A stretch of DNA of 64,000 bases from positions 44,060 through 108,059 of the forward strand of contig JAFSVF010000007.1 in assembly GCA_017450205.1 (NCBI GenBank), written 5' to 3'. The DNA comes from Bacilli bacterium (GTDB taxonomy: Bacteria > Bacillota_I > Bacilli_A > RF39 > UBA660). The position numbers and the translations under genes are program-made. The notes under the pieces are model-generated. The model did no database searches and had not been told where the DNA came from. It saw nothing but the letters and a program-made list of their open reading frames with translations. Numbering within the stretch: the stretch's first letter is position 1; every line of letters starts with the position of its first letter. This document shows, in pieces, positions 9,769-36,002 of this stretch.

Positions 9769-11193
9769 TTACCTTGTTTTAGTAGGTATTGTTACAGTAA
9801 ATGTAGATCCACTTCCATAAATACTTTCTACTGTAATTGTACCATTTAATAAATCAACTAATTTTTTTGTGATTGATAAACCTAAACCAGTACCAACTAT
9901 ATTCGAATTTTTCTCATCAGTTTGTTTAGCAAAATTAGTAAATAGAGTAATTAATGTTTCATTCTTAATACCAATACCAGTATCAGATATTTTTATTCTT
10001 AAATTATAAGTTTCATAATCTACTTGATCAACAGAAAGGTAAGTAGAAATTTTACCTGTTTCAGTATATTTAATAGCATTATTTAATAAATTACGTACAA
10101 TCTTTCTAATATGTTTTTCATCACCAATTAATTCTTCAGGTATTGAATCATCAAATATAAATTCAAATTCTAGATTCTTATTTGAGTTTCTTGATTTTTC
10201 ACTATTAATAACATCTTCGATAGTACTAATAGGATTAAATGGAGCTTCGTATATTTTAATTTCTTTGTTCTCTAACTTATTTATATCTAGAATATTACCA
10301 ACTATTTCATTTAAATTCTTAGAAGCAGGAAGTAAATATTCAATATCATCTAATACATCTTCATCTTTTATTTCATTTTTCATTGAATAAATTTCTTTAG
10401 ATAAAGCTACTATATTATTAAGTGGTTCTGCTAATTCTTCATTCATTGAATTTAAGAAATCTGATTTAGCTCTTAGAGCTTTTTCAGTTTCTTCTTTATT
10501 TCTATTAAGTTCATTTATATATTTTAAATCTGGATTCTCCATTTTAAAGTAAACTATATAAACAAATAAGAATTCAATTATAGAAATAATATGTACATCA
10601 CTAGTAGTCATAGTAAGTACAAGTACAGTACTTCCTAAGAACATAATAGCAATTATTTGAAGTATTCTATTAGTTTCTACTCTTGATCTATATTTAATAG
10701 TTAAATATATCCAGAATATAATATTCATAAAATAGAAGAAAGATACATATATTGCACCTAAACCATTAAATTCACAATTCTTTAAATTAACAGGTAATAA
10801 CATAACTATAATTACACTACTAATTTCCATAATCATATGTTTCTTATATTTTAAATCAAAGAATATTTTATTTCTAAAGTTTTCTCCTAAATGAAGTAAA
10901 ACTGATATATATAAACTAACATAAACTATATATACTATCGTAGAAGCATTATAAATTCTCATAAGTATTTGAGGTATAAAATTAGTTATTTTAAAAGTAT
11001 CTACTAAAACCATAACTATAGTAATAATAACAGTACTAAAAAATGATAAACCAAGTAGAGTATTATATACTTTAATAGTTTCTGAAGTATTTTTATTTTT
11101 AATATTAAATGTAACATATAATCCTAAACTAAATAATATAATAGGAATATAAATAGCAATATAATGAGAAGGACTTAAATAGTAATGAATCAT
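9769..11193 (-). CDS. sensor histidine kinase paralog lacking the phospho-acceptor His (degenerate H-box)
   Basis: Multi-TM N-terminus. The H-box reads SMNEELAEPLN instead of SMSHEIRTPLN (His to Glu). The N, G1 (DTGIGI) and G2 (GTGLGLSI) ATP-binding motifs are intact. Confidence 0.8.
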   Translation of the reverse strand: MIHYYLSPSHYIAIYIPIILFSLGLYVTFNIKNKNTSETIKVYNTLLGLSFFSTVIITIVMVLVDTFKITNFIPQILMRIYNASTIVYIVYVSLYISVLLHLGENFRNKIFFDLKYKKHMIMEISSVIIVMLLPVNLKNCEFNGLGAIYVSFFYFMNIIFWIYLTIKYRSRVETNRILQIIAIMFLGSTVLVLTMTTSDVHIISIIEFLFVYIVYFKMENPDLKYINELNRNKEETEKALRAKSDFLNSMNEELAEPLNNIVALSKEIYSMKNEIKDEDVLDDIEYLLPASKNLNEIVGNILDINKLENKEIKIYEAPFNPISTIEDVINSEKSRNSNKNLEFEFIFDDSIPEELIGDEKHIRKIVRNLLNNAIKYTETGKISTYLSVDQVDYETYNLRIKISDTGIGIKNETLITLFTNFAKQTDEKNSNIVGTGLGLSITKKLVDLLNGTITVESIYGSGSTFTVTIPTKTR

Positions 11194-12596
11194 TGAGTAA
11201 TCCTCCTTCCTGGTTGTTGAGGTAATTCAACTACAACAGTAGTACCCTTACCATAACTACTAACTATATTAATAGTACCTTTAAGCATTTCTACTATTTT
11301 CTTAGTAACTGATAAGTTTAAAGATAACTTAGCATTATAATATTTATTATTCTTAACTTTATCACTATTGTATTCATATACAAAAGGAAGTATATCATTA
11401 TGAATTCCAAGACCTGTATCTTTAACCACAATCTTTAATCTTGGTTTTTCCATATTATCATCAATATCAATATCTAAATCTATATCTCCATTCGTAGTAG
11501 TTTGTAAAGAATTCTCAAGTAATTTAGTAATAATTTGTCTAATATGTCCTTCATCTCCATAAAGAATAGGAATATTGTCACTAACATTAATATTAAATTT
11601 AGTAGTATTAGATATTTTGTATACTATAGACTTTCTTATTTGAGTAATAATAGTTCTTATATCATAATTACTTTCAATTATATCAGTATGTTTAGTATCT
11701 AGTTTATTAATATCTATAATACTAGAAATAGTATCAAGTAATAGATTAGAATAATAAATTAATTCAGTAGCATCTTCTTCAAGTTCTTTAGGAATATTTT
11801 TACTATTAATTTTAATATCTTCAGCTAGTCCAATAATACCATTAAGTGGAGTTCTTATTTCATGTGACATATTCTTTAAGAAATCACTCTTAACGCTATT
11901 AGCTTCATTAACTTTATTTTTAGCACTTTCAAGTTCTTTAATCATTTTATAGTCTGTATTCTCCATAGTTAAATAAATTAAATACATGATTAAATATTCA
12001 ATTATTGTAACTATTGCAAGAGTTGGAAATAGTGCTTGTATAACACCACCTATAACAGCAAGTAATATAAATATATATAAAGGTAATACAATATTTCTTC
12101 TAAATTTACTTCTATTTCTATGTAAAGTCATAGTCCAAAAGAATACATTAACTACTGAATAAATACTTACTGTATTAATAGCAGCACCATACCCATATAA
12201 GTCATTAATATGTACTGGTAAGAAACAAGATACTATAGAAATAATTATACAAAACATAAAAGAATATCTTTTAGTCTTAATATAGTATTTATTATTTTCT
12301 TTTTCATAACATACAGATAAAATATATAATGTTAATTCATTAATCATTGCACATGTATAAACAATATAAAATTTAATTAGTATTTCTCCAAATAAAATAT
12401 TATAGTTGGGTTGATAATACAAATATAACATTGTACCAAATTCATTGATTAAGCCAGTAAAGTTATATATCAATAATTTAGTAAATATTTTAGTTTGCTC
12501 ATTAATTATTCTTTTTTTTGAAAAGAATAAAATAATTGTTACTAGTGAAAAGAATATTGTAATACCAATTGAATAGCAGTATATCACGTTCACCAC
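11190..12596 (-). CDS. sensor histidine kinase (multi-TM sensor, HisKA + HATPase_c)
   Basis: Canonical H-box KSDFLKNMSHEIRTPLN with DTGLGI and GKGTTV motifs. Overlaps the downstream kinase by 4 nt (ATGA). Confidence 0.85.
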   Translation of the reverse strand: MVNVIYCYSIGITIFFSLVTIILFFSKKRIINEQTKIFTKLLIYNFTGLINEFGTMLYLYYQPNYNILFGEILIKFYIVYTCAMINELTLYILSVCYEKENNKYYIKTKRYSFMFCIIISIVSCFLPVHINDLYGYGAAINTVSIYSVVNVFFWTMTLHRNRSKFRRNIVLPLYIFILLAVIGGVIQALFPTLAIVTIIEYLIMYLIYLTMENTDYKMIKELESAKNKVNEANSVKSDFLKNMSHEIRTPLNGIIGLAEDIKINSKNIPKELEEDATELIYYSNLLLDTISSIIDINKLDTKHTDIIESNYDIRTIITQIRKSIVYKISNTTKFNINVSDNIPILYGDEGHIRQIITKLLENSLQTTTNGDIDLDIDIDDNMEKPRLKIVVKDTGLGIHNDILPFVYEYNSDKVKNNKYYNAKLSLNLSVTKKIVEMLKGTINIVSSYGKGTTVVVELPQQPGRRITQ

Positions 12597-12953
12597 ATCC
12601 TTATTATAATTATATCAATATAATAAATTAAATAAAATATTACTGATATGTTTTTATTAAATTTTAATTATTAATATATTGATATAAGAAAAAATATAAA
12701 AAGAGTGGGGATTAACATTACGTCAGAACCTCCAGCAGAAAATAGAAAAACAGTAAGAAAAACACATGAAGAATTAGAAAAAATGAGAATTGAAAAAAAG
12801 TTAAAAAAACAATTGGTTAAAGATTATTAAGTTTATTAGTTAAGGTTATGAAGTAAAAGATAATTATACACTTGATGAGATAAAGGCTCTTGAACAAGAA
12901 ATTGGTGAAGGTGTAAAAATTTTAAACAAAGTAAAATAAGAAGGGTAACCTTC

Positions 12954-13685
12954 TTATTTTGTTTTTCTTAAAATAGGAGATGTATTTTCTAAATCAGGAT
13001 GACCAAAATCATAATGGAAGTCTTCTGGTGTAACCTCTCTTGATTTAAAGAATGAAAGATTATGTTCTTTAGTTACTGTAGTTGAACAATTCTCATTTAC
13101 ATAAGGATAGTATTCAAGTATTTCTCTATAATCATCTACATATGGACTTCTTTCAACATACCATTTACCATTCTTTTCTTCTACACTATATCCAAAGTAT
13201 TGTTCATGGCATAATCTTACTTTACCAGTATTATCAAAATCATATTGATCTTTATGCCAATCGTAATGAGTTTCAACTATTTCTTTTGTATCAATTACAT
13301 TACCCTTTTCATCTTTAATTTCAATTATTTCTCTAGTTTCATATTTATATTCAAACTCTAAATAATCATAATTATTAGCCATTTTATTATATAGGTAATC
13401 AAAGTTTTCTATACCATCAAATAAGTCTTTTTTGGAAATTTTCTCAAAAGCTAATTCATCTTTTTTATTAATATCTATATATTCAGGATTCCATTGATAT
13501 CCGTTGTGGTCATAAAGATGTTCATTATCTTCATATTTTTTAATGGTAAAACCATTAATTTCTTTAGTATATAAATGAACATGTCTATTAGGTAATTCGC
13601 ACTCACTTGTCTCTCCACAACCAGATAATGTTAATGAAGACATTATCATATAAGGTAATAATTTATATATCATTTTCTTTTTCAT
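12954..13685 (-). CDS. lipoprotein, unknown function
   Basis: Signal peptide with lipobox LTLSGC. Y/E/D-rich mature region. Confidence 0.6.
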   Translation of the reverse strand: MKKKMIYKLLPYMIMSSLTLSGCGETSECELPNRHVHLYTKEINGFTIKKYEDNEHLYDHNGYQWNPEYIDINKKDELAFEKISKKDLFDGIENFDYLYNKMANNYDYLEFEYKYETREIIEIKDEKGNVIDTKEIVETHYDWHKDQYDFDNTGKVRLCHEQYFGYSVEEKNGKWYVERSPYVDDYREILEYYPYVNENCSTTVTKEHNLSFFKSREVTPEDFHYDFGHPDLENTSPILRKTK

Positions 13686-13789
13686 ATTAATCTCCCTTTT
13701 TTCAAGGAATTATTCTATATTTTTTAATTGTTGTTGTCAAATAAATTTTGTGCTATACTAAAAATCGTTTAAGGGGAGAGTTGGTATAA

Positions 13790-15421
13790 ATGAATAATGT
13801 ACAATTCGCAGATAATAAACAAGGTTATGATAAGTATTATGCATTAATTAAGAACCTTGAAGGTATATTTGAAAAAGTATATCAAATGAATAATTATAAG
13901 TTAGATATTAGCTATTATGAAAATGAATTAAATAGAATTAAGAAAGAATTCAATTTAAAAGATGAAATGTTACAATCTTCTACAATTACATTTGAAAGCT
14001 TTAGAACAGATTATGAAATGTTTACATTAGGAGAACTAAATAAATCACTAGAAAAATTAACTAATGAATTTGAAAATAATGTTACACCAATTTATAACAT
14101 TTATTTACTTTTTAGATCAATTGATAAAAAGATAAATAATAAAAAAGATAATGATATTGAAGAAGTTTTATCTGAAACATTTAAATTGTTGGATAGTATA
14201 GATTTAGTTTCAACGCATAATAATATTGAAACTACTACTTTAATTGATAGAGCACACAAAACTATTTATAATGCTCTTCTATATGAAGAAGTATATAACA
14301 GACATGACATTCTAAATTATATTAAATCATTAAATTTATCTACAACAAGAGAAACACTTGGAGAAATTATTAGAAAAGAAACTAAAGATTTAGTTGAAAA
14401 AGGTTTTATTACATCAGAAGATATAGATTCAGAATTTATTAATCATATCAATGAAGGTTTAGGATACGATTATTTAAGTGAAGAGTATTTAAAATTACTT
14501 GCTAATACAAAATTTGCTAATAAAATGAATCGCATGAGTAAAAAACAAGAAGAAGAACTAATCCTACTTGAAAAGAAAATAAAAAGAAATAATGATGAAA
14601 TTACATCAGATGAAACATATTTAAAGAATCATAAGTTTGATTTAGTAAAAAATGTTATTCAAGAGGTTATAATGAGAAGTTCAGTAATTGGTGCATTATC
14701 AATACCAGTATTTGGAACTTACCTTGGATATTCTGTTGGAAAATCAACAAGTGAAAAAATTACTGAATATGCAACTATAACAAGAGAAATAGATTTAGAT
14801 ACACGTGAATATTTATCTGAACCTGTAAAAGAATATGATGACAAAGAAACAAGTTATGTTGCAACGCTTACAATATATGAACCATGGACTAAGAATCCAA
14901 ATGGTCCAGGGTATATTAGAAAAGCTGTAGCTTACGAATATATTACACCAGAAAATGCTTCAAGTGATTTTAGAATTACAAGAGAAAACATCGAAGGTAA
15001 TATTAGAGAAAAGTATAAATTTAGTGAATTATCAGATGTAATTCCTGAAAATGAAAATACAACTGATTCCATAATTCATATTACAGAAACATATCAAGAC
15101 AAATTAGATTCAAGAAAAAGTACTAGATATATCTTACCATTTAGTATAGTAGCAGGTATTTTAAGTAGTGCAATTGGAATTGCAGGTTTAATAGCACTTT
15201 TAACAAATGATAATAGAAGAAGAACATTAGAAAACTTAAGCGATGAAAGAAGAGAATACAAGGAAAATATTAAATCTACAAAGGATAATCTAGAGTATTA
15301 TAGTGAAAAAGCATATGAATTAGAAAAAGAAAAAGAGAATATAGAAAATCAATATAATATAAAACTAGATACTGAAGTATTAAAAAGAACTTTAAAACAT
15401 AATAAGCCTAACAAACGTTAG
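13790..15421 (+). CDS. hypothetical protein with C-terminal TM anchor and coiled coil
   Basis: 543 aa ORF with RBS aggggagag. One predicted TM (ILPFSIVAGILSSAIGIAGLIALL) is followed by a charged coiled-coil tail. Confidence 0.45.
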   Translation: MNNVQFADNKQGYDKYYALIKNLEGIFEKVYQMNNYKLDISYYENELNRIKKEFNLKDEMLQSSTITFESFRTDYEMFTLGELNKSLEKLTNEFENNVTPIYNIYLLFRSIDKKINNKKDNDIEEVLSETFKLLDSIDLVSTHNNIETTTLIDRAHKTIYNALLYEEVYNRHDILNYIKSLNLSTTRETLGEIIRKETKDLVEKGFITSEDIDSEFINHINEGLGYDYLSEEYLKLLANTKFANKMNRMSKKQEEELILLEKKIKRNNDEITSDETYLKNHKFDLVKNVIQEVIMRSSVIGALSIPVFGTYLGYSVGKSTSEKITEYATITREIDLDTREYLSEPVKEYDDKETSYVATLTIYEPWTKNPNGPGYIRKAVAYEYITPENASSDFRITRENIEGNIREKYKFSELSDVIPENENTTDSIIHITETYQDKLDSRKSTRYILPFSIVAGILSSAIGIAGLIALLTNDNRRRTLENLSDERREYKENIKSTKDNLEYYSEKAYELEKEKENIENQYNIKLDTEVLKRTLKHNKPNKR

Positions 15422-15473
15422 ACTTATTTTTATATAAAAAAAACTAACTATTTCTAGTTAGTTAATTTCTAAA

Positions 15474-15550
15474 TGGTAGCGACGGGGAGATTCGAACTCT
15501 CGACCTGCCGGGTATGAACCGGATGCTCTAGCCAGCTGAGCTACATCGCC
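15474..15550 (-). tRNA. tRNA-Met (anticodon CAT)
   Basis: Reverse complement reads GGCGATGTAGCTCAGCTGGCTAGAGCATCCGGTTCATACCCGGCAGGTCGAGAGTTCGAATCTCCCCGTCGCTACCA. This gives a cloverleaf with a TTCATAC anticodon loop, a TTCGAAT T-loop and an encoded CCA. A few stem mismatches or wobbles are present. Confidence 0.8.
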
Positions 15551-15630
15551 ATTTCTTCAAGAACAAAAATATAATAACATATATTTAATTATTAAGTCAA
15601 TATTTATTTTGATGTATTTATTTGATATTA

Positions 15631-15657
15631 TTCTCATGCTATAATTTAACATGAGAA
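15631..15657 (+). promoter_or_regulatory. palindromic operator overlapping the -10 of the Fe-ADH promoter
   Basis: ttctcatg-ctataatttaa-catgagaa is an 8-bp perfect inverted repeat bracketing TATAAT (15640-15645). Confidence 0.35.
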
Positions 15658-15671
15658 TAGGAGGAATTACC

Positions 15672-16826
15672 ATGGCAAATAGAATGGTATTAAATGAAAC
15701 TTGTTATTTTGGTTATGGAGCAAAAGACAGTTTAGTTGATGAAATAAAAGGAAGAGGATTTAAAAAAGTATTAGTAGTAAGCGATCCTGGAATTGTAGAT
15801 GCAGGTATTGCAAAACAAATTACTGACCTTTTAGATGAAAATGGAATAGCTTATAAGTTATATGCAGATATTCAACCTAATCCAAGCATTGAAAATGTTA
15901 AAGGTGGAGTAGAAGTTGCAAGAGCTGAAAATGTTGATTCATTTGTAGTAGTAGGTGGTGGATCAGCAATTGATACTACCAAAGCTATTGCAATTATAAT
16001 GACTAATCCAGAATATGAAGATGTAAGAAGTCTTGATGGAGTAGTAGCTACTAAAAATAAATGTATGCCAATTATTGCACTTCCTACAACAGCAGGAACA
16101 GCTGCAGAGGTTACAATAAACTATGTAATTAGTGATGAAGAAAATAAAAAGAAAATGGTTTGTGTTGATCCACATGATATTCCGGTGGTAGCAATCGTAG
16201 ATCCAGATCTAATGAGCACAATGCCATCCCCACTTGCAGCAGCAACAGGAATGGATGCACTTACACATGCAATGGAAGGTTATATTACTAAGGGTTCTTT
16301 CTTAGCATCAGATATGTTCCATATTAATGCAATCGCGCTTATTTATAAGAATCTAGAAGCGGCAGTTAATAAAAAAGATAAAGATGCAATTGAAAAAGTA
16401 GCATATGGTCAATATATCGCAGGTATGGGATTCTCTAACTCAGGTTTAGGAATTGTTCATTCACTAGCACATTCACTAGGAAGTTATTGTCATATAGCTC
16501 ATGGAGATGCTTGTGCTGTTATGCTTCCACATGTATTAAAATTCAATGGTAGTGTTTGTCCAGATGCCTATAGAGATATGGGTAGAGCTATGGGACTATC
16601 AATGGATGGTTTAAGTGATGAAGCAGCAGTAGATGCAGTAGTTAATGCTGTTAAAGATTTATCAGTTAAAGTTGGAATTAAACAAACTTTAAAAGAATTG
16701 GGCGTTGAAAGAGATATGCTTCCAATCATGGCAGATCAAGCAATTAACGATGTATGTACTGGAGGAAATCCAAGAACAACTACTCGTGATGATATGTTAA
16801 AACTTTACGAAGAAACTTATGAATAA
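15672..16826 (+). CDS. iron-containing alcohol dehydrogenase (FucO/DhaT-like)
   Basis: GGGSAIDTTKA NAD-binding motif and the His-rich Fe site (HAMEGY...HSLAHSLG...HG). RBS aggagg precedes the ATG at 15672. Confidence 0.9.
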   Translation: MANRMVLNETCYFGYGAKDSLVDEIKGRGFKKVLVVSDPGIVDAGIAKQITDLLDENGIAYKLYADIQPNPSIENVKGGVEVARAENVDSFVVVGGGSAIDTTKAIAIIMTNPEYEDVRSLDGVVATKNKCMPIIALPTTAGTAAEVTINYVISDEENKKKMVCVDPHDIPVVAIVDPDLMSTMPSPLAAATGMDALTHAMEGYITKGSFLASDMFHINAIALIYKNLEAAVNKKDKDAIEKVAYGQYIAGMGFSNSGLGIVHSLAHSLGSYCHIAHGDACAVMLPHVLKFNGSVCPDAYRDMGRAMGLSMDGLSDEAAVDAVVNAVKDLSVKVGIKQTLKELGVERDMLPIMADQAINDVCTGGNPRTTTRDDMLKLYEETYE

Positions 16827-16918
16827 TAAAAAAAGATTTATAAAAAATATAAATCTTTTTTTATGATATTTTTTAAAAAATATAATCATGTTATAATGAA
16901 TTTAGATTAGGTGAGAGT

Positions 16919-18715
16919 ATGTCGGATATAAGAAATGCGTATTTAGGTTTATTATTAGCTTATAGTATTGTTGTATTTTTACTTATCATGATAAGAGATA
17001 CTAATAATAACAATTCATTTAAAAAATCTTTAAACTTGTTTAATACATGTTTATTTGTTTTTATAATTGGACTAGTTATTAATATATTAGGTAATAATTT
17101 TTATGATACAAGTAATTGGTACTCATTAAAAAATGTATTTTTAGCTAAGGGCTATTGCGCTTATTTATTTTCACTTATAGCATTCTTGTCTTCTTATTAT
17201 TGTGTTAATATTTTTAATTTTCAAATGAATGTATTACCTAAAAATAAAAAGAGTATTTTTTACTTCTTATTTTATATAATTTCAATTATTTTAATATTTG
17301 CATTACCTATAACAATTGAATTAAATGATGGTAGATTCTCATTTACTGGTCTATCTGTAACATATACTATGATAGCAGCTTTCTCATCATTTGTACCTGT
17401 AATTATTGAATTTATAATGAATATAAGAAAGATAGATTATTTTGAACTATTTTCACCATTCTTATTCTTTGCATTATGTATACTTTCAATATATTTTCAA
17501 TATGTAGTTAATTTATCACTTAATGAATTAGTAATAGCATTCTCTCTAGTTGTTACTTATTTTGGCGTTGAAAAAAGAGAAGAAAAACTTCAAGAAAATA
17601 TAAGTAATGCAATTATTTCTCTACAAAAAGGAGCTAGATTTAAATCAGACTTCTTATCTAATATGTCTCATGAAATAAAAACACCACTAAATTCAATTCT
17701 TTATACATCTAGAACATTAAATGAAAATAATAATATTAATTATGCTACTAAAAGAGAAATCAATGATATTATCTATTCCTCAGATATGCTTCAAGAAGTA
17801 ATAAGTAATATATTAATGGTTAATAAACTAGAAAATAATAAAGCTAATTTTAATAAGATTAATTATAACATTAAAACTGAAATTAAAACCTTACCATTTG
17901 TAGAAAAAATGAAAATAGATCCAAATGGAATAAACTTCTTTGTATATATAGATCCAAATGTACCAGATTTAATCTATGGTGAAAAAGAAGCAATTAGACT
18001 AATAATTAATAACGTATTAACATTTGCTCTTAACTATGTTAAGAGTGGTTCTTTAACTTTAAAAATATCTTGGGATGAAGAATCAGATAAAGGTTCTCAA
18101 TTAGTTCTAGAAGTAGAAAACGTTGAAGAAGGAATTGGAAATCTTTATAAGAATATAGATAACTTATCTGTATCTATATTTGACTGTGTTCAAAATTCAG
18201 ACTTTGGATTAGGTTTAGCATCAATTCTTACAAATAAATTAAATGGTAAAATTGATTTAGAAATCGAAGAAAACAGAAACAATATTATATTTAATATTCC
18301 TCATACAATCGGAGTTAAAATGCAAAACTTTGATAATGTAAGTTATGAAGGTAAGAAAGTACTAGTAGTAGATGATGTTAACTTAAATTTAAAAATTGCT
18401 AATAATGTATTCTCAAGTCTTAATATTGCATGTGATCTTGCAAACTCAGGTAGTGAATGTATTGAATTTGTAAAAAATAATATTTATGATTATATATTCT
18501 TAGATATAATGATGCCAAACTTAAATGGTGAAGAAACATTAAAAAAATTAAAAGAAATAGATGGTTTTAATGTTCCTGTTATAGCATTAACAGCTGATGA
18601 TGTACCAGACGCTGAAAAGAAGTATTTAGAAAAAGGTTTTTCAGGTTTTATAATAAAACCATTTACAAAATCAGATATAGTTAATGTTCTTGAAATTACT
18701 AATGGAGGTGATTAG
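16919..18715 (+). CDS. hybrid sensor histidine kinase (multi-TM, HisKA, HATPase_c, C-terminal REC)
   Basis: H-box KSDFLSNMSHEIKTPLN. Receiver segment VLVVDDVNLNLK...FLDIMMPNLNG...ALTAD. Confidence 0.85.
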   Translation: MSDIRNAYLGLLLAYSIVVFLLIMIRDTNNNNSFKKSLNLFNTCLFVFIIGLVINILGNNFYDTSNWYSLKNVFLAKGYCAYLFSLIAFLSSYYCVNIFNFQMNVLPKNKKSIFYFLFYIISIILIFALPITIELNDGRFSFTGLSVTYTMIAAFSSFVPVIIEFIMNIRKIDYFELFSPFLFFALCILSIYFQYVVNLSLNELVIAFSLVVTYFGVEKREEKLQENISNAIISLQKGARFKSDFLSNMSHEIKTPLNSILYTSRTLNENNNINYATKREINDIIYSSDMLQEVISNILMVNKLENNKANFNKINYNIKTEIKTLPFVEKMKIDPNGINFFVYIDPNVPDLIYGEKEAIRLIINNVLTFALNYVKSGSLTLKISWDEESDKGSQLVLEVENVEEGIGNLYKNIDNLSVSIFDCVQNSDFGLGLASILTNKLNGKIDLEIEENRNNIIFNIPHTIGVKMQNFDNVSYEGKKVLVVDDVNLNLKIANNVFSSLNIACDLANSGSECIEFVKNNIYDYIFLDIMMPNLNGEETLKKLKEIDGFNVPVIALTADDVPDAEKKYLEKGFSGFIIKPFTKSDIVNVLEITNGGD

Positions 18716-26908: not shown

Positions 26909-27292
26909 ATGGAAGAGAAAAATTCATATGTATTTATCGGAACTGAATACTTTTTAAGTAGTAAATCAACTGCATTTTGTTATTTAAAGTTAAATAATGA
27001 AATTGGACATGTAGAAATTAAATATATTTTTGATTTAGTTCATGAAAAGTTTTTAAGTAATAATAATATTTATCACTTAGATAATGAAGTATTTAATAAA
27101 ATAGTTAATACAAAAGTTTTTGATAATAATGGAGTTCCTGGAATAATTTCTAAAATGGTTCCAGATAATATATGTAGAGATTTCGTTTATATTTATAATG
27201 AACTTACTAAGGATTATACTTTTAGTGATTCATTTGCAATTAATCATATAAATGAAGAATATAAATTAAAAATAAAAGAAAGAGTGATTTAA
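26909..27292 (+). CDS. hypothetical protein
   Basis: ORF with RBS ggaggg. No recognisable motif. Confidence 0.4.
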   Translation: MEEKNSYVFIGTEYFLSSKSTAFCYLKLNNEIGHVEIKYIFDLVHEKFLSNNNIYHLDNEVFNKIVNTKVFDNNGVPGIISKMVPDNICRDFVYIYNELTKDYTFSDSFAINHINEEYKLKIKERVI

Positions 27293-27980: not shown

Positions 27981-28010
27981 AAAATAGAAGAACTATCTTC
28001 TATTTTTTTT
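27981..28010 (+). terminator. rho-independent terminator
   Basis: aatagaaga-acta-tcttctatt stem followed by T8. Confidence 0.45.
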
Positions 28011-28043
28011 ATATTTTAATTATAATTATACTAGGTGGTATAT

Positions 28044-28529
28044 ATGAGAGTAATAAAAATCATATTTGCTTGTTTAGGTATTCTAATATCTATTGGTACT
28101 TTCTATATAGTATCTAATTATTACGATAGTACTAATGATAGATTTTCATTTATAGATTTAAATGTTGTAGAAGTAAAAAAAGATACTGGAGACAATACTC
28201 AAGATGAAGTAGTAGGAGACAGACCAAAAATAACATTCTCAAATGTATATAGTTTAAAATATAAATATTATCAAATGGCTGGAATATTCTTTGTAAATGG
28301 ATTTTTAGTTTCTCTAATAATTATCTGGATGCTTCAAACAAGATTTTATAAAATAAGTGCATCAGAAAACATTGAAGACATAGATAACTTAATTGTATTA
28401 TTTATGACAGCAATTACTTTAGGACTAATCCTAGCTATGACTCAAATAGTTATTTTTAATAGAGTTTATAGAACTACTAATACTAAAAATATTAATAGTA
28501 TTAATACAAAAGAGGTAGTTAAAAATTAA
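28044..28529 (+). CDS. small membrane protein (3-4 TM)
   Basis: Hydrophobic segments. The ATG at 28044 is preferred over the GTG at 28035. Confidence 0.45.
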   Translation: MRVIKIIFACLGILISIGTFYIVSNYYDSTNDRFSFIDLNVVEVKKDTGDNTQDEVVGDRPKITFSNVYSLKYKYYQMAGIFFVNGFLVSLIIIWMLQTRFYKISASENIEDIDNLIVLFMTAITLGLILAMTQIVIFNRVYRTTNTKNINSINTKEVVKN

Positions 28530-28559
28530 CTTGTTTTATTAACAAGTTTTTGTTATAAT
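28529..28559 (+). promoter_or_regulatory. putative sigma-A promoter for the small K-rich ORF
   Basis: TTGTTT, 17-nt spacer, TATAAT. Overlaps the upstream terminator hairpin aacttgtt / aacaagtt. Confidence 0.4.
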
Positions 28560-28586
28560 GTTAATCGACGCAAAGGAGTGAAATAA

Positions 28587-28736
28587 ATGAGAACTTATAA
28601 AAAGAATTTACCAGATGGAGTAAAATCTGCATTCGGAGCTGTTCGTGGAGTTAAAGTTAAATTTATTAACAAAAAAATGGCTGACGAAAAAAAGAAAAAA
28701 GAAATCGCTAAAAAAGCTGCAAAATCTGCTAAATAA
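28587..28736 (+). CDS. small lysine-rich protein (49 aa); below the 60-aa length of the shortest ORF in the supplied track
   Basis: Strong RBS aaaggagtg 6 nt before the ATG. Sequence MRTYKKNLPDGVKSAFGAVRGVKVKFINKKMADEKKKKEIAKKAAKSAK. Own promoter and a T-run after the stop. Confidence 0.5.
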   Translation: MRTYKKNLPDGVKSAFGAVRGVKVKFINKKMADEKKKKEIAKKAAKSAK

Positions 28737-28814
28737 TTTAGTTGATTTTTTTTTGCTTAATTTTTGACAAAAAAATAATTTGTGATAATATATATCCTAC
28801 GAAAGAGGATTATT

Positions 28815-29654
28815 ATGATCAAGTTAGATAAAGATTCAAATGGAATAATTAATATTAATAATTTAAATGTTAATATAGATATGTTTAATCCTGATAGATG
28901 TGGATTTAGGTTTGTTAAAGATGAAACAAGATATTTCTTTAAAAGATGTGGTAAAGAAGAAACCTTTAAGGAAATTTTTGCATCAAAAGTCGCAGATAAA
29001 ATGGGTATTGAACATGCAAGTTATGATATTGCTACATTTAGTGGTAATGAAGGCGTTGTATGTAACGCAGTTAATAAACAAGATGAAGAATTTATTTCTT
29101 TTGGTCAAATAAGAAGTAAACTTAAAATTAGTTATAAATATGATAATAGTATTGATACTATGAAAAAGAAAATATTACCTAAGATATGTTTATTTAATTC
29201 TAAAGAAGAATTAGATAAATTTATTAATGTATTTATCTTTGATATATTAATGGCTAATAGTGATAGAAACTGTGGAAATATAGGTTTTATTAAAAAGAAT
29301 AATAATTATAGAGTTTCTCCAATATTTGATAATGAAGAAATAGTAAATACACTTGCAATTGATGAACATACATATTCATTTACTGTTATAAATAGAAAAT
29401 TTGATGGTTTAAATTATGATACAATCATAGATTTCTTTAAAAATAAAAACTATGGTTATTTACTTAGTGATGCAATAGATAATTTCAATTTAGAAGATTT
29501 ATATGATTTAGTAGAAGAAATAAATCAAATATATCCTAATAAATTTGATAAAGACTATGAAATCCATGTTCTTAGTGAACTTAAAAGAAATTTACAAATA
29601 CTAAAAGAGTATAGATATGATTACTATAATGAAAGTAAAATGTTGAGAAGATAA
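28815..29654 (+). CDS. HipA-like (HipA_C kinase core) protein
   Basis: FINVFIFDILMANSDRNCGNIGFI...RVSPIFDNE matches the HipA C-terminal catalytic region pattern (F..VFN.L..N.D.H.KN......LSPAYD) with His replaced by Asn. RBS aagagga. Confidence 0.45.
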   Translation: MIKLDKDSNGIININNLNVNIDMFNPDRCGFRFVKDETRYFFKRCGKEETFKEIFASKVADKMGIEHASYDIATFSGNEGVVCNAVNKQDEEFISFGQIRSKLKISYKYDNSIDTMKKKILPKICLFNSKEELDKFINVFIFDILMANSDRNCGNIGFIKKNNNYRVSPIFDNEEIVNTLAIDEHTYSFTVINRKFDGLNYDTIIDFFKNKNYGYLLSDAIDNFNLEDLYDLVEEINQIYPNKFDKDYEIHVLSELKRNLQILKEYRYDYYNESKMLRR

Positions 29655-29656
29655 TT

Positions 29657-30286
29657 ATGGATGCGCATTTTGATTCAAATAATTTAAAAGAGTTTTTAAA
29701 AACAAATAAACCAATAGGTAAAGGTTACTTTGGTAGCTGTTACTTATATAATAATGACTACGTATTAAAAGCTATGGTTGAAGAATCTAAGAAGAAAAGT
29801 AATAGAGTTATTTATAAAGAAATTAAAGAAGATAAAAAACTAGAAGAATATTATTTTAAGACTTATGATACTAACTATACAACTAAAGAAGAAAGACTAA
29901 AAGAAACAATGGAAAGACTTTCCTATACAAAATATAGTTATGATTTAATTCAAGGATTAGCATACTATTATAATTATTGTTTTGGTACAGTATTAAAGTA
30001 TTATAAAGATTATTTAACTCTAGCGCATTCATCAATATATAATTTATCACAAGAAGAATTAGATGAGTTATATCATAACATTGAAGTATCTTATGAAGAT
30101 TTATTTAATAACTATATATATCCATTAGATATTAGAGATGAAAATATAATGTTTAATAATAATTTAGAAGTTAAACTAATAGATTTAGATGATGGATTAA
30201 CTTTTTATAATTATAATAAAAGTGAGAAAAAAGAAGAAATATGTAGAAATAAATTAAAAGAAATTAGAAAGGATCTTAAAAGATGA
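29657..30286 (+). CDS. minimal protein-kinase-like fold protein
   Basis: Gly-rich loop IGKGYFGSCY, beta3 Lys in VLK, catalytic-loop-like DIRDENIM and DFG-like LIDLDDG. 209 aa. Confidence 0.4.
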   Translation: MDAHFDSNNLKEFLKTNKPIGKGYFGSCYLYNNDYVLKAMVEESKKKSNRVIYKEIKEDKKLEEYYFKTYDTNYTTKEERLKETMERLSYTKYSYDLIQGLAYYYNYCFGTVLKYYKDYLTLAHSSIYNLSQEELDELYHNIEVSYEDLFNNYIYPLDIRDENIMFNNNLEVKLIDLDDGLTFYNYNKSEKKEEICRNKLKEIRKDLKR

Positions 30287-30846
30287 AGATTATAAATAAA
30301 AGAAAAATAAAAGGGAGTTTAATAGGTTTAAGTTTACTTGCTTTAGTAGGATGTACAAAAATAAATCCAGATACAGATATTCCAAAGTCTATTGATGCTT
30401 TAAATATCGAAGAAGTAAATGATGAAGAAGTGGTAAAATTTAATGATTTAGAAGATATAAATGTTTACTTCGAATATAGAGTAACTGATAAAAATATTAT
30501 ATATGGATCATCTGTTTTAAAAGAAGTAGATGGTGATAATTATAAAGCCTACTACAATTATAAAAGTGGTAATTTAGTGGGAGTAGAATTTGATAACTTA
30601 AGTGAAGCTGATAAATTCTTTTACAGAAATTATTTAAATACATCGTTCATTAAAGTATCAACTCTTGAAGAACAACTTACTAATCCAAATAATATTAAGT
30701 TAATTCAAGATGGTATAAACTTTGATGAAGAATATATAAACTTGGATACTTTAAGATTAATGGACGCTTCAATGTATCCACATAACAAAGAAGTATTTAC
30801 AAATGAATTAGATAAAGTATGTGAAGAAAAGAAGCTAACTAGATAG
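30283..30846 (+). CDS. lipoprotein, unknown function
   Basis: Lipobox LLALVGCTK. Coupled to the upstream kinase-like gene. Confidence 0.6.
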   Translation: MKIINKRKIKGSLIGLSLLALVGCTKINPDTDIPKSIDALNIEEVNDEEVVKFNDLEDINVYFEYRVTDKNIIYGSSVLKEVDGDNYKAYYNYKSGNLVGVEFDNLSEADKFFYRNYLNTSFIKVSTLEEQLTNPNNIKLIQDGINFDEEYINLDTLRLMDASMYPHNKEVFTNELDKVCEEKKLTR

Positions 30847-30975
30847 TTAACTTCATTTACTAAAGGCTTTTTAGAACCTTCCAAAATTTGACAAAATCAT
30901 TAAAAAGTAATATATTATGGGCAATTCAAGGGAAGATGATGACTTGAATTTCCGTATAGATAATGGGGGTTATTT

Positions 30976-32778
30976 ATGGAAAAAAATTATAGTTTTTATA
31001 GAAATGAACCAGTATTAGATTTAAATCCTAATCAAACAATGTATTCATTTATTAAAAATATTAATGAAAATAATATGGATAAAAAAGCAATTGATTTCTT
31101 TGGTACAAGAACATCATTTGATAGTTTAATTAATGAAAGAACTGTTAAACTTGCTGATGCATATTATAAAAATGGTGTTAGAGAAGGAGATTCTGTTGGT
31201 TTGCTTTTAATTAACATTCCTGCTGTTCAAGAAAATCTTTTAGCACTTAGTTATCTTGGCGCAACTGCTAAATGGATTGATGTAAGAAATAAAGAAAAAG
31301 ATTTAATTGATAAATTAAATGAAAATGATGGTTGTAAATTTGTAGTTGCATTTGATGGAGTTGCAAATAATGTAATTAATATTCTTAATGAAACAAATGT
31401 CGAAAAAGTATTAGTTGTTTCTCCTAAGGATTATTTAAATCCAATTGCTAAAATTGTTGCTAATTATAAAGATTTTAAAGAAAACAAAAAAATAGATATT
31501 GATTATAACGATAAAGTTATGAAATATATGGACTTTTATAAAGAAGGTTCAAAAAATACTGATATTACACCTGTATCGTTTGAAAAAGATAGACCATCTA
31601 TTATTGTTCAATCAAGTGGTAGTACTGGTAAGTCTAAATCTATTTTACATACTGAGTATAACTTTAATAGTGAAATGGTTAAAGAATCATATTCTGATTT
31701 ACCTTTAGTTGCTGGCAATAGGATGTTTGTTACTGTTCCACCATTTATTATATATGGTTTATGTAACTCGATTTATGCAGCAATGACTTTTGGACTAGAA
31801 GGTGTTCTTTCTCCATACTTAGACGATGATGTAGTTTTGAAAGCTCTAGGTAAGATTGATATTTCTGCTGGTGTTCCATTACATTATAGATGTATATATG
31901 CTAAAATGGTTTCTTTAAAAAATGAAATTGATGAATTAATTAAATTAGATTCACCATCAGTTAAAAAAGATTTATTAAAGAAAACAAAAGAATTAGATGA
32001 TATTATTAATAAGTTAAAAAATACTAAAGCATTTATTTCTGGTGGAGATAAAATTACTGCTGATGAAATATTAAGAATGGAACATACATTTAACGTTCCT
32101 GTTATTAATGGATATGGAAATAATGAAATGTGTGGTGCTTCCGTTATTACACCTGTTTATGGTTCTAAACCTGATTCAATTGGTATTCCTTTAAAAGGTG
32201 TAGAAATTCATGCTTTTGATGAAAATACTAATGAACAACTACCTGATGGTGAAGTTGGAGAATTATGTATGAAATCAGATAATATGTTTGTTGAATATAT
32301 TAATAATCCAACTGAAACAAATAAAATTAAACAAACTCATAAAGATGGATCTTCATGGGTTCATACTGGAGATTTAGGATTTATTGATCAAGATGGATTT
32401 GTATTTGTAACTGGTAGAAATCGTCGTTTAATTAAAATGGATAGCTTTAAAATATCACCTGAAACTATTGAATCATGTGTTTTAAAACTTAATTATATTA
32501 AGGATTGTGTAGTAGTAGGTGCTCCTGATGAAGAACATAAGGAAGTTCCTATGCTATATATTGAAAAAAATGTCGATGTTACAGTAAACAACGATGAATT
32601 GATCGAATGTGTAAAACAATATTGCGCAGAAAACATTCCTGATTATGAAAATCCTGCATATATTGAAATTTTAGATAGTATACCATATTCGAATGGTAAA
32701 CATAATTTTAAATTATTAGCAGAAAAAGCCAAAAATTTTGTAAACGAAAATAATAAGAGTAAAGTATTAATGAAATAA
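30976..32778 (+). CDS. AMP-dependent synthetase/ligase (acyl/aryl-CoA ligase family)
   Basis: AMP-binding motif SSGSTGKSK. Adenylation-domain core motifs YGNNE and GDLG. Confidence 0.85.
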   Translation: MEKNYSFYRNEPVLDLNPNQTMYSFIKNINENNMDKKAIDFFGTRTSFDSLINERTVKLADAYYKNGVREGDSVGLLLINIPAVQENLLALSYLGATAKWIDVRNKEKDLIDKLNENDGCKFVVAFDGVANNVINILNETNVEKVLVVSPKDYLNPIAKIVANYKDFKENKKIDIDYNDKVMKYMDFYKEGSKNTDITPVSFEKDRPSIIVQSSGSTGKSKSILHTEYNFNSEMVKESYSDLPLVAGNRMFVTVPPFIIYGLCNSIYAAMTFGLEGVLSPYLDDDVVLKALGKIDISAGVPLHYRCIYAKMVSLKNEIDELIKLDSPSVKKDLLKKTKELDDIINKLKNTKAFISGGDKITADEILRMEHTFNVPVINGYGNNEMCGASVITPVYGSKPDSIGIPLKGVEIHAFDENTNEQLPDGEVGELCMKSDNMFVEYINNPTETNKIKQTHKDGSSWVHTGDLGFIDQDGFVFVTGRNRRLIKMDSFKISPETIESCVLKLNYIKDCVVVGAPDEEHKEVPMLYIEKNVDVTVNNDELIECVKQYCAENIPDYENPAYIEILDSIPYSNGKHNFKLLAEKAKNFVNENNKSKVLMK

Positions 32779-32797
32779 TTGATGTATTTCTATTTAA

Positions 32798-32829
32798 GGA
32801 AACGATATATATCGTTTCCTATTTTTTTT
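32798..32829 (+). terminator. rho-independent terminator after the ligase gene
   Basis: ggaaacgat-atat-atcgtttcc stem followed by T9. It sits inside the N-terminal extension of the 32779 ORF-track entry and argues against that start. Confidence 0.65.
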
Positions 32830-32880
32830 GCTTTTTATTTATGTTATAATTTCACTAGAACAAGAATAGAAGGTAGATAT

Positions 32881-35334
32881 ATGAACTTTGATTTGTTAAA
32901 TTTATGTACATTTATATATACTGTAACGATTAGTATATTATTTTTTAGAAAGAAAAGAGTAAAATCTACTGAATTAACTATTTTTTCTTTTTTACTTGTT
33001 ATTTCTGTTTGTTCACTATCATGTGAGCAAGGTTTGATTTTGCTTGTTGGTTTCAAAAATACTTTGTTTTATACTGCTTTATTAAAATTATTATTAATTT
33101 TTTATTACTTATGGACTGCGTTCTTTTTACTATATACAATATCTGTTTCATTTGAAAAACTAATTACTAAGAAGTTTTTGATTCCATATTTTTTATTTGG
33201 TTTAGCTATTATTGGTATTGTATTTACATTACCAATCCAATTAATTGATTATGGCAGTTCGGGATATTCTTCTGGTCTTGCTGTAGATTTTATAAGTTCT
33301 ATTTGTGGATTATATTGTTTTATTATGATTGTTTTATGTGTTATAAGCTTTAATAAATTTAAAACTAAAAAGTATCTACCTATTATTATTTTATTAATAT
33401 TACTTATTGGATCATTTGTTATTCAACGTTCGAATCCACAAATACTTTTAATGGCTTTTGTTCATGCATTTACGGGATTTGTTATGTACTTTACTGTTGA
33501 AAATCCAGATTTAGGAATAATTAAAGAACTTGAAAAAGCAAGAGATGAAGCTAATAGAGCTAATAAAGCTAAGAGCGAATTCTTAAGTTCCATGTCACAT
33601 GAAATAAGAACACCTCTAAATGCTATTATTGGTTTTTCTGAATTTATCTTAGATAGTGATTCTATCGAAGATGCTCATAATACTGCTAAAGATGTTGTAT
33701 GTGCGTCTCAAACATTACTAGAAACAGTTAATGGTATTCTAGATATATCTAAAGTTGAATCAGGTAAACTAGAAATTATTGAAGACAATTATAACTTAAA
33801 AGAATTACTTGATAACACAGTTAGAATAGCTAAAGCAAGAATGGGTGATAAACAACTTGATTTAAGAGTTCATTTCGCACCTGATCTTCCTGATACATTA
33901 TATGGTGATAAAAATAACTTAAATAAAGTTATTATTAACTTACTTACTAATGCAATTAAATATACTAAAGAAGGCTATATTGATTATTCAGTCCAATGTG
34001 CTAAAACACCTGAAATATGTAGACTTATTATTACAGTTAAAGATACTGGTATTGGAATTAAAAAAGAAAATATTGATAAGTTATTTACTAGATTCCAAAG
34101 ATTTGATGAAAAGAGTAACGGTACTATTGAAGGTACAGGATTAGGACTTGCTATTACTAAACAATTAGTTGAAATGATGGGTGGTAATATTGTAGTTTCT
34201 TCTATTTATGGAGAAGGTTCTAACTTTACAGTTGCACTAGATCAAAGAATAAGTCTTGCTCATGTTGCTCGTGAAGATATTCAAGCAGATGAATATAGAT
34301 TTGATCTACATGATAAAAAGATTCTTGTAGTAGATGATAATAATTTAAACTTAAAACTTGCAGAAAGAATATTCTTAAAATATAACTGTAAAGTTCAATG
34401 CGTAACAAGTGGATTCGAATGCTTAGATTACATTAATAAAGGATATACTTATGATTTAGTATTACTAGATGATGTAATGCCTAAGATGCTAGGTAGTGAA
34501 ACTCTAACAAGATTAAAAAGAATTGAAAACTTTAAAACACCAGTTATTGCATTAACTGCTAATGCAATCGCAGGTATGAAAGAAAAATATTTACTTCTTG
34601 GTTTTGATGATTATTTAGCTAAACCAATTGAAAAAGATCAATTAGAAATAATTCTTAAGAAATTCTTACTTGATAAGAAAGAAGCTAAGAGTCTAAGTGA
34701 TGATGTATTAACTTCAAGTAGACCAATGAGTGTTATTAGTGATGAAACTAAAAATGATATTTTATCAAGTGCTTCTTCTAAGAACACAGTAGTAGTTACT
34801 AAAGAACAAGCTGCACCTGAACCTGCAACTCAAGCACAAACAGCAAAACCTGAAGAAAAATCTCAAGTTGAAGGAATTAAATTCAATGATAAAGGTGCTA
34901 ATGCTGAAATAGTTATTCCTGAAAATGAACAATTTACTGATTACTCTGATAAGAGAATCTTAGTAGTAGATGATAATAAATTAAACTTAAAAGTTGCTCT
35001 TAAATTCTTATCGAGATATAAATTCCAAGAAGATGAAGCATACTCCGGTGAAGAATGTCTTGAAAAGATTAAGAATGGTGAAAAGTACGATATTATCTTT
35101 ATGGATATTATGATGCCTAACTTAAACGGTGTAGAAACATTCCATGAATTACAAAAGATTGAAGGATTTAATATCCCAGTAGTAATTGCCTTAACAGCAG
35201 ATGCTGTTGAAGGTGCAAAAGAAAAGTACTTAAAAGAAGGTTTCGCAGAATATATCTCTAAACCAATCGTAAGAGAAAGACTTGATAAAGTAATACATAA
35301 AGTATTAGATGAAAAAGAACAAAGTGAAGACTAG
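32881..35334 (+). CDS. hybrid sensor histidine kinase with two C-terminal receiver domains
   Basis: Multi-TM N-terminus and H-box KSEFLSSMSHEIRTPLN with DTGIGI and GTGLGLAI motifs. REC1 (ILVVDDNNLNLK...) and REC2 (ILVVDDNKLNLK...DIIFMDIMMPNLNG). Start at the ATG at 32881, which follows the terminator and a TATAAT box. Confidence 0.85.
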   Translation: MNFDLLNLCTFIYTVTISILFFRKKRVKSTELTIFSFLLVISVCSLSCEQGLILLVGFKNTLFYTALLKLLLIFYYLWTAFFLLYTISVSFEKLITKKFLIPYFLFGLAIIGIVFTLPIQLIDYGSSGYSSGLAVDFISSICGLYCFIMIVLCVISFNKFKTKKYLPIIILLILLIGSFVIQRSNPQILLMAFVHAFTGFVMYFTVENPDLGIIKELEKARDEANRANKAKSEFLSSMSHEIRTPLNAIIGFSEFILDSDSIEDAHNTAKDVVCASQTLLETVNGILDISKVESGKLEIIEDNYNLKELLDNTVRIAKARMGDKQLDLRVHFAPDLPDTLYGDKNNLNKVIINLLTNAIKYTKEGYIDYSVQCAKTPEICRLIITVKDTGIGIKKENIDKLFTRFQRFDEKSNGTIEGTGLGLAITKQLVEMMGGNIVVSSIYGEGSNFTVALDQRISLAHVAREDIQADEYRFDLHDKKILVVDDNNLNLKLAERIFLKYNCKVQCVTSGFECLDYINKGYTYDLVLLDDVMPKMLGSETLTRLKRIENFKTPVIALTANAIAGMKEKYLLLGFDDYLAKPIEKDQLEIILKKFLLDKKEAKSLSDDVLTSSRPMSVISDETKNDILSSASSKNTVVVTKEQAAPEPATQAQTAKPEEKSQVEGIKFNDKGANAEIVIPENEQFTDYSDKRILVVDDNKLNLKVALKFLSRYKFQEDEAYSGEECLEKIKNGEKYDIIFMDIMMPNLNGVETFHELQKIEGFNIPVVIALTADAVEGAKEKYLKEGFAEYISKPIVRERLDKVIHKVLDEKEQSED

Positions 35335-35352
35335 AGAAATCTAGTCTTTTTA
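35328..35352 (+). terminator. rho-independent terminator
   Basis: agactaga-gaaa-tctagtct stem followed by a T-run. It overlaps the stop codon. Confidence 0.5.
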
Positions 35353-35585
35353 CTTGTTTTAATTTAATAATATACTTAAATAAATAGGGAAGTATAGTAA
35401 GTTTACGATTAAGACAATAGAAACAAAAAAAGAATATATTAAACACTTTGAAAAGAATGTTCCTATCTCTCATGCACAATACATATTTGAAAAAAATTTA
35501 TAGTATTAAAATTGTCTATTACTTTACATTTTTACTAAAGAGATTATTAATATTATGATATACTTATAAAGTAAGGTGGGAAATT

Positions 35586-36002
35586 ATGGATACATACACA
35601 GAAGAAGACAATAGACAATATACAGATTATTCAGATAAAAGAATTCTTGTAGTAGATGATAATAAATTAAATTTAAAAGTTGCTCTTAAATTTATGTCTA
35701 AATATAATTTTAAAACTGATGAATGCTATAGTGGAGAAGAATGTTTAGATAAAATTCGTAGAGGAGAAAAGTATGATATTATTTTTATGGATATAATGAT
35801 GCCTACACTTAATGGTGTAGAAACATTCCATGAATTACAAAGAATTAAAGGATTTAATACTCCAGTAGTAATTGCTTTAACTGCAGATGCGGTTGAAGGA
35901 GCAAAAGAAAAATATTTAAGAGAAGGATTTGCTGAATATATTTCAAAACCAATAGTTAGAGATCATCTAGATGAAGTAGTTCATAAAGTATTAGATAAGT
36001 AA
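35586..36002 (+). CDS. stand-alone receiver (REC-only) response regulator
   Basis: 138 aa. Roughly 85% aa identity to REC2 of the upstream hybrid kinase, with a shared 28-nt identical DNA stretch. Confidence 0.85.
   Translation: MDTYTEEDNRQYTDYSDKRILVVDDNKLNLKVALKFMSKYNFKTDECYSGEECLDKIRRGEKYDIIFMDIMMPTLNGVETFHELQRIKGFNTPVVIALTADAVEGAKEKYLREGFAEYISKPIVRDHLDEVVHKVLDK

Follow-up and report, generated by a model that had tools for sequence, protein, structure and literature searches.

A 64,000-nucleotide stretch of DNA from a Bacilli bacterium (assembly GCA_017450205.1, contig JAFSVF010000007.1, positions 44,060 to 108,059; the whole stretch is termed the window below) encodes five paralogous sensor histidine kinases, K1 to K5, and a stand-alone receiver, REC6. 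All five kinase open reading frames (ORFs) listed in an initial annotation were confirmed at their coordinates. That annotation treated them as equivalent kinases, a view that cannot be maintained: a complete set of catalytic motifs is found only in K4 and K5, whereas K1, K2, and K3 are defective in conserved, complementary ways and stand in tandem pairs. The genes are listed below (7TM, seven transmembrane helices; CA, catalytic and ATP binding).

9769-11193, minus strand: K1, a 7TM sensor, a DHp domain without the phospho-acceptor His, and an intact ATP-binding domain; no REC (Pfam, alignment, and motifs).
11190-12596, minus strand: K2, a 7TM sensor, a DHp domain with His245 (H box at 11844-11873), and a defective ATP-binding domain; no REC.
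16919-18715, plus strand: K3, a 7TM sensor, a DHp domain with His251 (H box at 17660-17689), a dead ATP-binding domain, and a REC (Asp529).
18719-20536, plus strand: K4, a 7TM sensor, complete HisKA/HATPase_c (His252), and a REC (Asp540), beginning 3 nt after the end of K3.
32881-35334, plus strand: K5, a 7TM sensor (amino acids [aa] 1 to 206), the motif VENPD, complete HisKA/HATPase_c (His240), REC1 (Asp530), a linker, and REC2 (Asp742).
35586-36002, plus strand: REC6, a stand-alone receiver (Asp69; Pfam), a tandem duplicate of K5 REC2.

HisKA and HATPase_c were detected by Pfam in all five kinases, and each has approximately seven hydrophobic segments at its N terminus, in agreement with the polytopic sensors proposed initially. 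The Pfam scan also placed one REC in K3, one in K4, two in K5, and a lone REC in 35586-36002, which bears out the earlier count of three kinases with one or two C-terminal receivers and a stand-alone receiver after the last; K1 and K2 have no REC and are therefore not hybrid kinases. The claim of a shared architecture conceals differences among the domains. The HisKA match of K1 (19.7 bits versus a Pfam cutoff of 26.9) is subthreshold because its His is replaced by Glu, the HATPase_c match of K3 (20.8 bits versus a cutoff of 26.4) is subthreshold because its N-box Asn and G1 box are gone, and K2 has no G2 box. The phospho-acceptor His lies within SHEI(R/K)T in K2, K3, K4, and K5 but not in K1, and a complete ATP-binding domain (N-box Asn, G1, F box, and G2) is present in K1, K4, and K5 but not in K2 and K3. 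The acidic pocket, phospho-Asp, Thr, and Lys are kept in all receivers (K3, K4, K5, and REC6). An ENPD-type juxtamembrane motif is near-invariant across the kinase family to which these proteins belong. The (V/M)EN(P/T)D-type motif described initially holds in four of the five (MENPD in K1, MENTD in K2, IENYD in K4, and VENPD in K5), with K3 deviating (VEKRE). The H box lies 31 residues from this site in all five, which suggests a rigid helical link from the last transmembrane helix (TM7) to the phospho-acceptor site.

K2 is the upstream gene of the first pair, and its stop overlaps the start of K1 by 4 nt. In the H box of K1 (SMNEELAEPL; 10420-10449), Glu252 takes the place of His, while the N (10063-10092), G1 (9967-9984), and G2 (9877-9894) boxes are all intact. 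In all 12 full-length K1 orthologues read directly (48 to 97% identity), the His is replaced by E or D and the CA boxes are intact, in agreement with a motif screen of everything retrieved; no alternative conserved His was found in the DHp domain of these 12. CA is the best-conserved domain, with 66% conservation between K1 and P0036 (the greatest distance), compared to 58% for DHp and 30% for the sensor. K2 is the reverse: it keeps the His, the N-box Asn, and G1, but its G2 box reads AKLSLNLS (11310-11333) instead of GTGLGL, and its F box is degenerate. Orthologues of K2 (49 to 81% identity; P0135 and the loci L080 and L082) have kept the His and have always lost G2 and the F box. (L-numbered loci are the stretches of relatives' DNA that were fetched, and family-wide counts of gene context refer to these.) The tandem order of K2 followed by K1 is preserved in the contexts of K2 orthologues, and no spacer separates the genes in L080 and L082. 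The two linked genes are thus complementary, one His positive and CA defective and the other His negative and CA intact, and L080 and L082 keep the same pattern.

The second pair consists of K3 and K4. The N-box Asn of K3 is replaced by Phe369 (18011-18040) and the G1 box is lost (ENVEEGI; 18116-18136). Orthologues in L080 (43% identity), L087 (59%), L088 (66%), and L086 (96%) have likewise kept the His and lost the N-box Asn and G1. K3 orthologues in relatives are always directly followed by an intact K4, and the tandem is kept in L086, L087, and L088. In relatives, the genes of each pair, K2 and K1 as well as K3 and K4, abut or overlap. K3, and in part K2, has the sequence features predicted for a kinase-like phosphotransferase, i.e., a His-bearing DHp domain joined to a CA domain unable to bind ATP.

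K5 lies in a third locus, which includes three further features.

30976-32778, plus strand: AMP-binding, acyl-CoA-synthetase-like enzyme (Pfam), the conserved upstream neighbor of K5-type kinases.
32797-32820, plus strand: strong terminator-like hairpin and T run, between the AMP-binding gene and K5.
35326-35349: terminator-like hairpin separating K5 from REC6.

The AMP-binding enzyme resembles NCBIfam fatty-acid-CoA ligases, with matches below all cutoffs. Its gene is immediately upstream of the kinase in approximately 25 relatives and in L083, L084, and L106, and because the same enzyme precedes K5, K5 is by position orthologous to the core kinase of the family. The start at ATG 32881, preceded by a GAAGG ribosome-binding site, is favored because the hairpin at 32797-32820 falls inside the TTG-extended ORF; despite the conservation of the gene pair, this hairpin may be an attenuator or a point at which expression of the two genes is uncoupled. 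The linker between REC1 and REC2 is of low complexity. REC6 shares 81% nucleotide identity with K5 REC2 over 300 nt, has its own strong Shine-Dalgarno sequence (AAGGTGG), and recurs in L001 and L003, the closest relatives. REC2 differs in subtype from the terminal receiver of relatives (see below); receivers of the REC2 subtype pair with nonhybrid 7TM kinases in L049, L053, L063, and L068. REC6 is followed by a 138-aa ORF (36005-36421) whose match to M29 aminopeptidases is limited to their N-terminal third (profile positions 13 to 137 of 406). A 76% identical counterpart exists in L003 but not in L002, and the ORF is either an old remnant or a truncated domain protein that has remained stable.

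The sensors of K1 to K5 share only 15 to 25% pairwise identity. Nevertheless, a profile of 44 sensors, all taken from other genomes, finds all five at 38 to 125 bits, with reversed decoys scoring <0, and on this basis their sequences identify them as paralogues within one family. The paralogous expansion proposed initially is thereby substantiated, and the alternative of sensors from unrelated families is not borne out. No relevant Pfam match to known sensor families (7TMR-DISM, 5TMR-LYT, HisKA_7TM, and MASE) was found for any of the five sensors, even at an E value of ≤10. When 1.84 billion representative proteins were searched exhaustively by profile, there were 1,522 members at an E value of ≤1e-3 and 733 at ≤1e-10, mostly hybrid kinases of approximately 600 residues. 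The 7TM sensor-kinase family defined here thus comprises approximately 1,500 clusters at 50% identity and has no Pfam model. Judged from the sequences retrieved, it is restricted to a lineage of uncultured low-GC gut Bacilli, within which it is widespread. In an AlphaFold2 model of K5 residues 1 to 260 (50 homologues; pLDDT, 88.5), the sensor has seven TM helices, the sole sizeable external element is predicted to be a 14-residue hairpin between TM4 and TM5, and TM7 is predicted to run into DHp as a continuous helix. Foldseek comparison of this model with the PDB retrieved the TM domains of class C, class B, and adhesion G protein-coupled receptors (GPCRs), with TM-scores of 0.45 to 0.59, E values of ∼1e-3, and 12 to 19% identity; on the model, the likeness is one of generic 7TM topology only. 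In a neighbor-joining tree, K5 grouped with L002a/b (76% bootstrap support) and K1 to K4 were placed on long branches. A sister relationship of K1 and K2 as duplicates received 30% support and is not claimed. Orthologues of K1 to K4 are confined to the genus-level clade of the window, in which the family has expanded to three modules.

Searches for regulators and Hpt proteins covered the 64-kb window and, for Hpt, also ∼45 kb of syntenic DNA of L002 and L080 to L082. Pfam identified no helix-turn-helix (HTH) regulator or Hpt among window ORFs of ≥100 aa, and unassigned ORFs gave none at an E value of ≤5. A lineage-specific Hpt profile found none in the six-frame translation of the window (best E value, 0.54), there were no intergenic ORFs of 60 to 99 aa in the window, and no Hpt was found in the syntenic DNA. 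No adjacent response regulator with a DNA-binding output occurs in the 64 kb, and the absence of HTH regulators and Hpt proteins reported initially is therefore upheld. OmpR-type pairs occur elsewhere in related genomes (L024 and L025). Two ORFs considered as cryptic Hpt proteins, 26909-27292 and 30283-30846, were rejected, having no HxxKS/G motif and no Pfam signal. The sole window protein with a putative DNA-binding-type domain is the product of an ORF6N/Rha-type (phage antirepressor-like) gene at 6407-7192, which lies between cobW and an adenosine deaminase gene and is absent in L080.

In the majority of the distant relatives fetched with K5 as the query, an Hpt adjoins or is fused to the orthologous kinase, and many have a receiver-only protein after it. 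The Hpt occurs as an Hpt-REC fusion of ∼258 aa, as a separate Hpt (∼118 aa) and REC (∼127 aa), or as a C-terminal fusion to the kinase; its H-x-x-K-S...G signature is invariant, and database annotation assigns it to PF01627. The commonest arrangement of the family core is an acyl-CoA-synthetase-like gene, a 7TM kinase with a receiver, an Hpt, and a receiver-only protein. By its domain order, this cluster is a putative His-Asp-His-Asp relay that ends on a single-domain receiver, a finding in line with the multikinase phosphorelay suggested initially as a possibility. Comparison of the loci indicates that the Hpt and the terminal receiver have been lost from the K5 locus of the window and of L001, L002, and L003, its nearest relatives. 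The terminal receiver type of the relatives (LLDLNMP...IITGD) is not among the receivers of the window. The stand-alone receiver noted after K5 is therefore real, but REC6 is of the K5 REC2 type and is not the family's terminal receiver. Spo0A is encoded in L033 (2693-3451), 6.5 kb upstream of a kinase-REC-Hpt gene, and the spore coat genes CotZ and YutH are found in L084 (13394-15641); because relatives carry such genes, the lineage looks spore forming. The relatives' Hpt relay could in principle feed Spo0A.

Complementary losses recur elsewhere in the family. A tandem in L041 consists of a gene with the His present and a degenerate CA domain (6058-7950) overlapping one in which the His is replaced by Val and the CA domain is intact (7940-9796), and in L022 an intact kinase is followed by a copy with a dead CA domain.

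These observations lead us to lean, with restrained confidence, toward a multikinase network in which split kinase pairs phosphorylate in trans and for which the window encodes no output. K1, K2, and K3 would probably work as two-protein split kinases. K2 and K1, which are translationally coupled, would form a functionally split kinase in which the catalytic domain of K1 phosphorylates His245 of K2 within a heteromer. The His of K2 is the candidate substrate because the ATPase of K1 is intact and conserved but K1 itself is unphosphorylatable, while its cotranslated partner has a crippled ATP lid. In the second pair, K4 is by its motifs a complete hybrid kinase and would phosphorylate the His of K3 in trans. 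Another possibility is that K3 is a phosphotransfer protein like RedE, Spo0B, or ChpT, drawing phosphate back from a receiver and so replacing the lost Hpt as the second-His step. K5 would autophosphorylate and load REC1, REC2, and the free REC6. The phosphate could finally pass to a remote Hpt or to a regulator elsewhere in the genome (for instance, Spo0A), or it could end on the receivers. The buried 7TM sensor and the acyl-activating neighbor suggest, by neighborhood, that the ligand may be membrane, lipid, or acyl derived. A more far-reaching version of the scheme is doubtful and put forward only tentatively: the family would include obligate heteromeric class I kinases in which tandem paralogues share out the reaction, the His staying with one and the ATPase with the other, a GPCR-like 7TM domain would read a membrane or acyl signal together with the acyl-CoA-synthetase-like enzyme, and in the window's clade dead-ATPase paralogues would have taken over the Hpt step.

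Several points weigh against trans-phosphorylating pairs. Histidine kinases are normally homodimers, and the association of K1 with K2 and of K3 with K4 is predicted from sequence and linkage. K1 and K2 are not robust sisters in the tree. With its N-box Asn and G1, K2 may bind ATP and act alone, K1 then being a mere regulator, and K4, to judge from its motifs, is complete and needs no partner. L084, an abundant relative, has no adjacent Hpt. Moreover, 51 of 213 full-core sequences in the mixed retrieved set lack both the His and G2. They include a large clade with 97% bootstrap support (family representatives P0137, P0213, P0274, and others and loci L083, L105, and L106) in which the His is mostly replaced by Gln while the N box, G1, and REC are kept, and whose members follow an AMP-binding gene where the upstream gene is identifiable (L083 and L106). 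From these motifs, its members look like full pseudokinases, which complementation does not explain, and pseudokinases of this family may therefore signal without phosphotransfer.

Part of this evidence would suit five independent orphan kinases, each a homodimer signaling to a distant regulator such as Spo0A, with motif deviations that are tolerated or serve for tuning. Clostridial orphan sporulation kinases signal to Spo0A; Spo0A and spore coat genes exist in this lineage (L033 and L084), no cognate regulator lies near any of the five kinases, K2 retains two ATP-binding elements, and the fast divergence of the sensors is expected if each senses a different signal. It is difficult to reconcile this explanation with K1, which without a conserved His in DHp cannot be a kinase alone, or with the loss of the Mg-ATP-binding Asn and G1 in every K3 orthologue, and the defective genes are always end to end with a partner that holds what they lack. 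We consider it improbable. An Hpt-less, receiver-only network with nontranscriptional output, which was among the options raised initially and would be like Esp and Red of Myxococcus, is also unlikely, though less so. In such a network, the RECs of K3, K4, and K5 and REC6 would be the end points, acting when phosphorylated through protein-protein contacts or as phosphate sinks. The failure to find an Hpt in the window or in the syntenic DNA is as expected from it, as is the copying of REC2 to give a free receiver that has a ribosome-binding site to itself; the relatives' relay too ends on a receiver-only protein, and RedCDEF provides a precedent (PMC2755868). However, the Hpt that adjoins the orthologous kinase in most of the distant relatives fetched implies that hybrids of this type normally use one, the evidence spans only ∼64 kb of the genome, and such a network alone leaves the conserved ATPase of the His-less K1 unexplained. 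Finally, K1, K2, and K3 could be decaying, functionless copies left by a recent expansion, as the loss of catalytic motifs and a genome that seems small and fast evolving, with ∼25% GC, might suggest. This is scarcely credible: all three are full-length ORFs, the same substitutions occur in orthologues down to 43 to 48% identity, no frameshifts were seen, and the domains are more conserved than the sensors. The conservation data contradict a pseudogene reading of K1 to K3, which is rejected.

The locus is of interest chiefly because its pairs, which resemble split kinases, are conserved and because the window's clade no longer has the Hpt and terminal receiver at the K5 locus. The family at large has a conserved acyl-activating partner as well as a relay of Hpt and receiver-only protein, and it contains many pseudokinases. 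Complementation in trans between a kinase mutant without the His and one without the ATPase is a classic of the laboratory, and the conserved natural pairs that look like it (K2 and K1, K3 and K4, and the L041 tandem) would offer a handle on whether and why obligate heterodimers evolve among class I kinases. In annotating the window, activity should not be presumed for three of its five “sensor histidine kinases.”

The GC content of the window is ∼25%, and nearly all genes are on the plus strand. Its housekeeping genes (rpoC, ldh, pyk, rpsB, tsf, and those for RecU, a class A penicillin-binding protein, and Der) point to a Firmicutes/Bacilli host. The nearest public DNA is from metagenome-assembled genomes of uncultured gut “Bacilli” (human, rabbit, and rumen samples); among the named relatives are Clostridium sp. 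CAG:417, CAG:628, and Candidatus Scybalousia, and fragments of the closest relatives have 85 to 97% protein identity to the window. On the left flank, syntenic relatives have rpoB. One metabolic gene accompanies the second kinase pair and also adjoins the K3 orthologue in L080.

15651-16826, plus strand: iron-dependent alcohol dehydrogenase (Pfam), separated by 92 nt from the start of K3, which is also on the plus strand.

Between the first pair and this gene, 12954-15421 (a lipoprotein-like ORF and a 543-aa ORF without a family match, followed by tRNA-Met at 15474-15550 on the minus strand) differs from its counterpart at 3189-8255 of L080, which encodes a LysR regulator, a cytidylyltransferase, a metallo-beta-lactamase-fold protein, PHP, PAP2, and a glycosyltransferase. 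A HipA_C-like ORF directly followed by an ORF with a weak eukaryotic-type protein-kinase match (28782-30286) may be a toxin-type kinase pair; no homologues were found in the corresponding L002 stretch (blastp; E value, ≤1e-10). A block of ∼14 kb between tsf and the gene at 53224 (38683-52947), missing in the syntenic L002 and L003, encodes DUF1846, nucleoside deoxyribosyltransferase-like, and radical-SAM/SPASM proteins, DegT-type and class I aminotransferases, FemAB-like acetyltransferases, PHP, an APH/choline-kinase-like protein, and an ABC-F ATPase. It is closed by an IS110-family transposase gene (51781-52947, minus strand) and is probably a strain-specific surface-modification island.

The best NCBIfam models for the catalytic cores of the five kinases are TorS, BarA, ArcB, LuxQ, and RcsC, and for K1 also RcsD, all below cutoffs, and PDB relatives include HK853-type kinases and RetS; by sequence, the cores are classed as ordinary HisKA/HATPase_c domains of the hybrid class. 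The locus is reminiscent of GacS/LadS/RetS/PA1611 of Pseudomonas, RscS/SypF of Vibrio, and RcsC/RcsD of enterobacteria, in which several hybrid kinases feed one relay, and RcsD, like K1, is a kinase-like protein without the His. RetS-GacS heteromers occur, LadS uses the Hpt of GacS, and RscS/SypF and RcsC/RcsD are likewise multikinase networks, some members of which (LadS and RscS) borrow an Hpt (PMC12189002). In contrast to these networks, the window has an unrelated 7TM sensor, no Hpt, and a Firmicutes rather than proteobacterial host, and its kinases show point losses in full-length paralogues encoded by abutting gene pairs.

The division of His and catalysis between K2 and K1 is the same as in CheA3/CheA4 and in predicted split HisKA/HATPase kinases. 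In Rhodobacter sphaeroides, one of CheA3 and CheA4 has the phosphorylatable His and the other the active catalytic domain, and neither is expected to work alone (PMC3591291). CheA, however, is a class II kinase that was split by domain loss, whereas K1 and K2 are class I membrane kinases that keep all domains and have complementary motifs inactivated; CheA3/CheA4 is a characterized split kinase, and trans-phosphorylation in K1/K2 is predicted from sequence.

Spo0B and ChpT are kinase-shaped phosphotransferases that take phosphate from a receiver. The parts list of RedCDEF, Spo0B, and ChpT is mirrored here by K3 and K2 (each with the His but with a dead or an impaired CA domain), the dual RECs of K5, and REC6. 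In the RedCDEF system of Myxococcus, RedE cannot autophosphorylate and receives its phosphate from a dual-receiver protein, and dual- and single-receiver proteins without output domains belong to the system (PMC2755868), as they do here. There is no sequence orthology to RedE, Spo0B, or ChpT, K2 and K3 are 7TM membrane proteins, and K3 has its own receiver.

The seven TM helices and very short loops of the K5 sensor model are shared with bacterial receptors of the 7TMR-DISM type and with GPCR TM domains. The likeness is one of generic topology, and the sensors here differ in having no Pfam 7TM-sensor match and no extracellular domain. The system is distinct from those known in its combination of a Pfam-less 7TM sensor, linkage to an acyl-CoA-synthetase-like gene, a relay ending on a receiver-only protein, and recurrent complementary motif loss in abutting paralogues.

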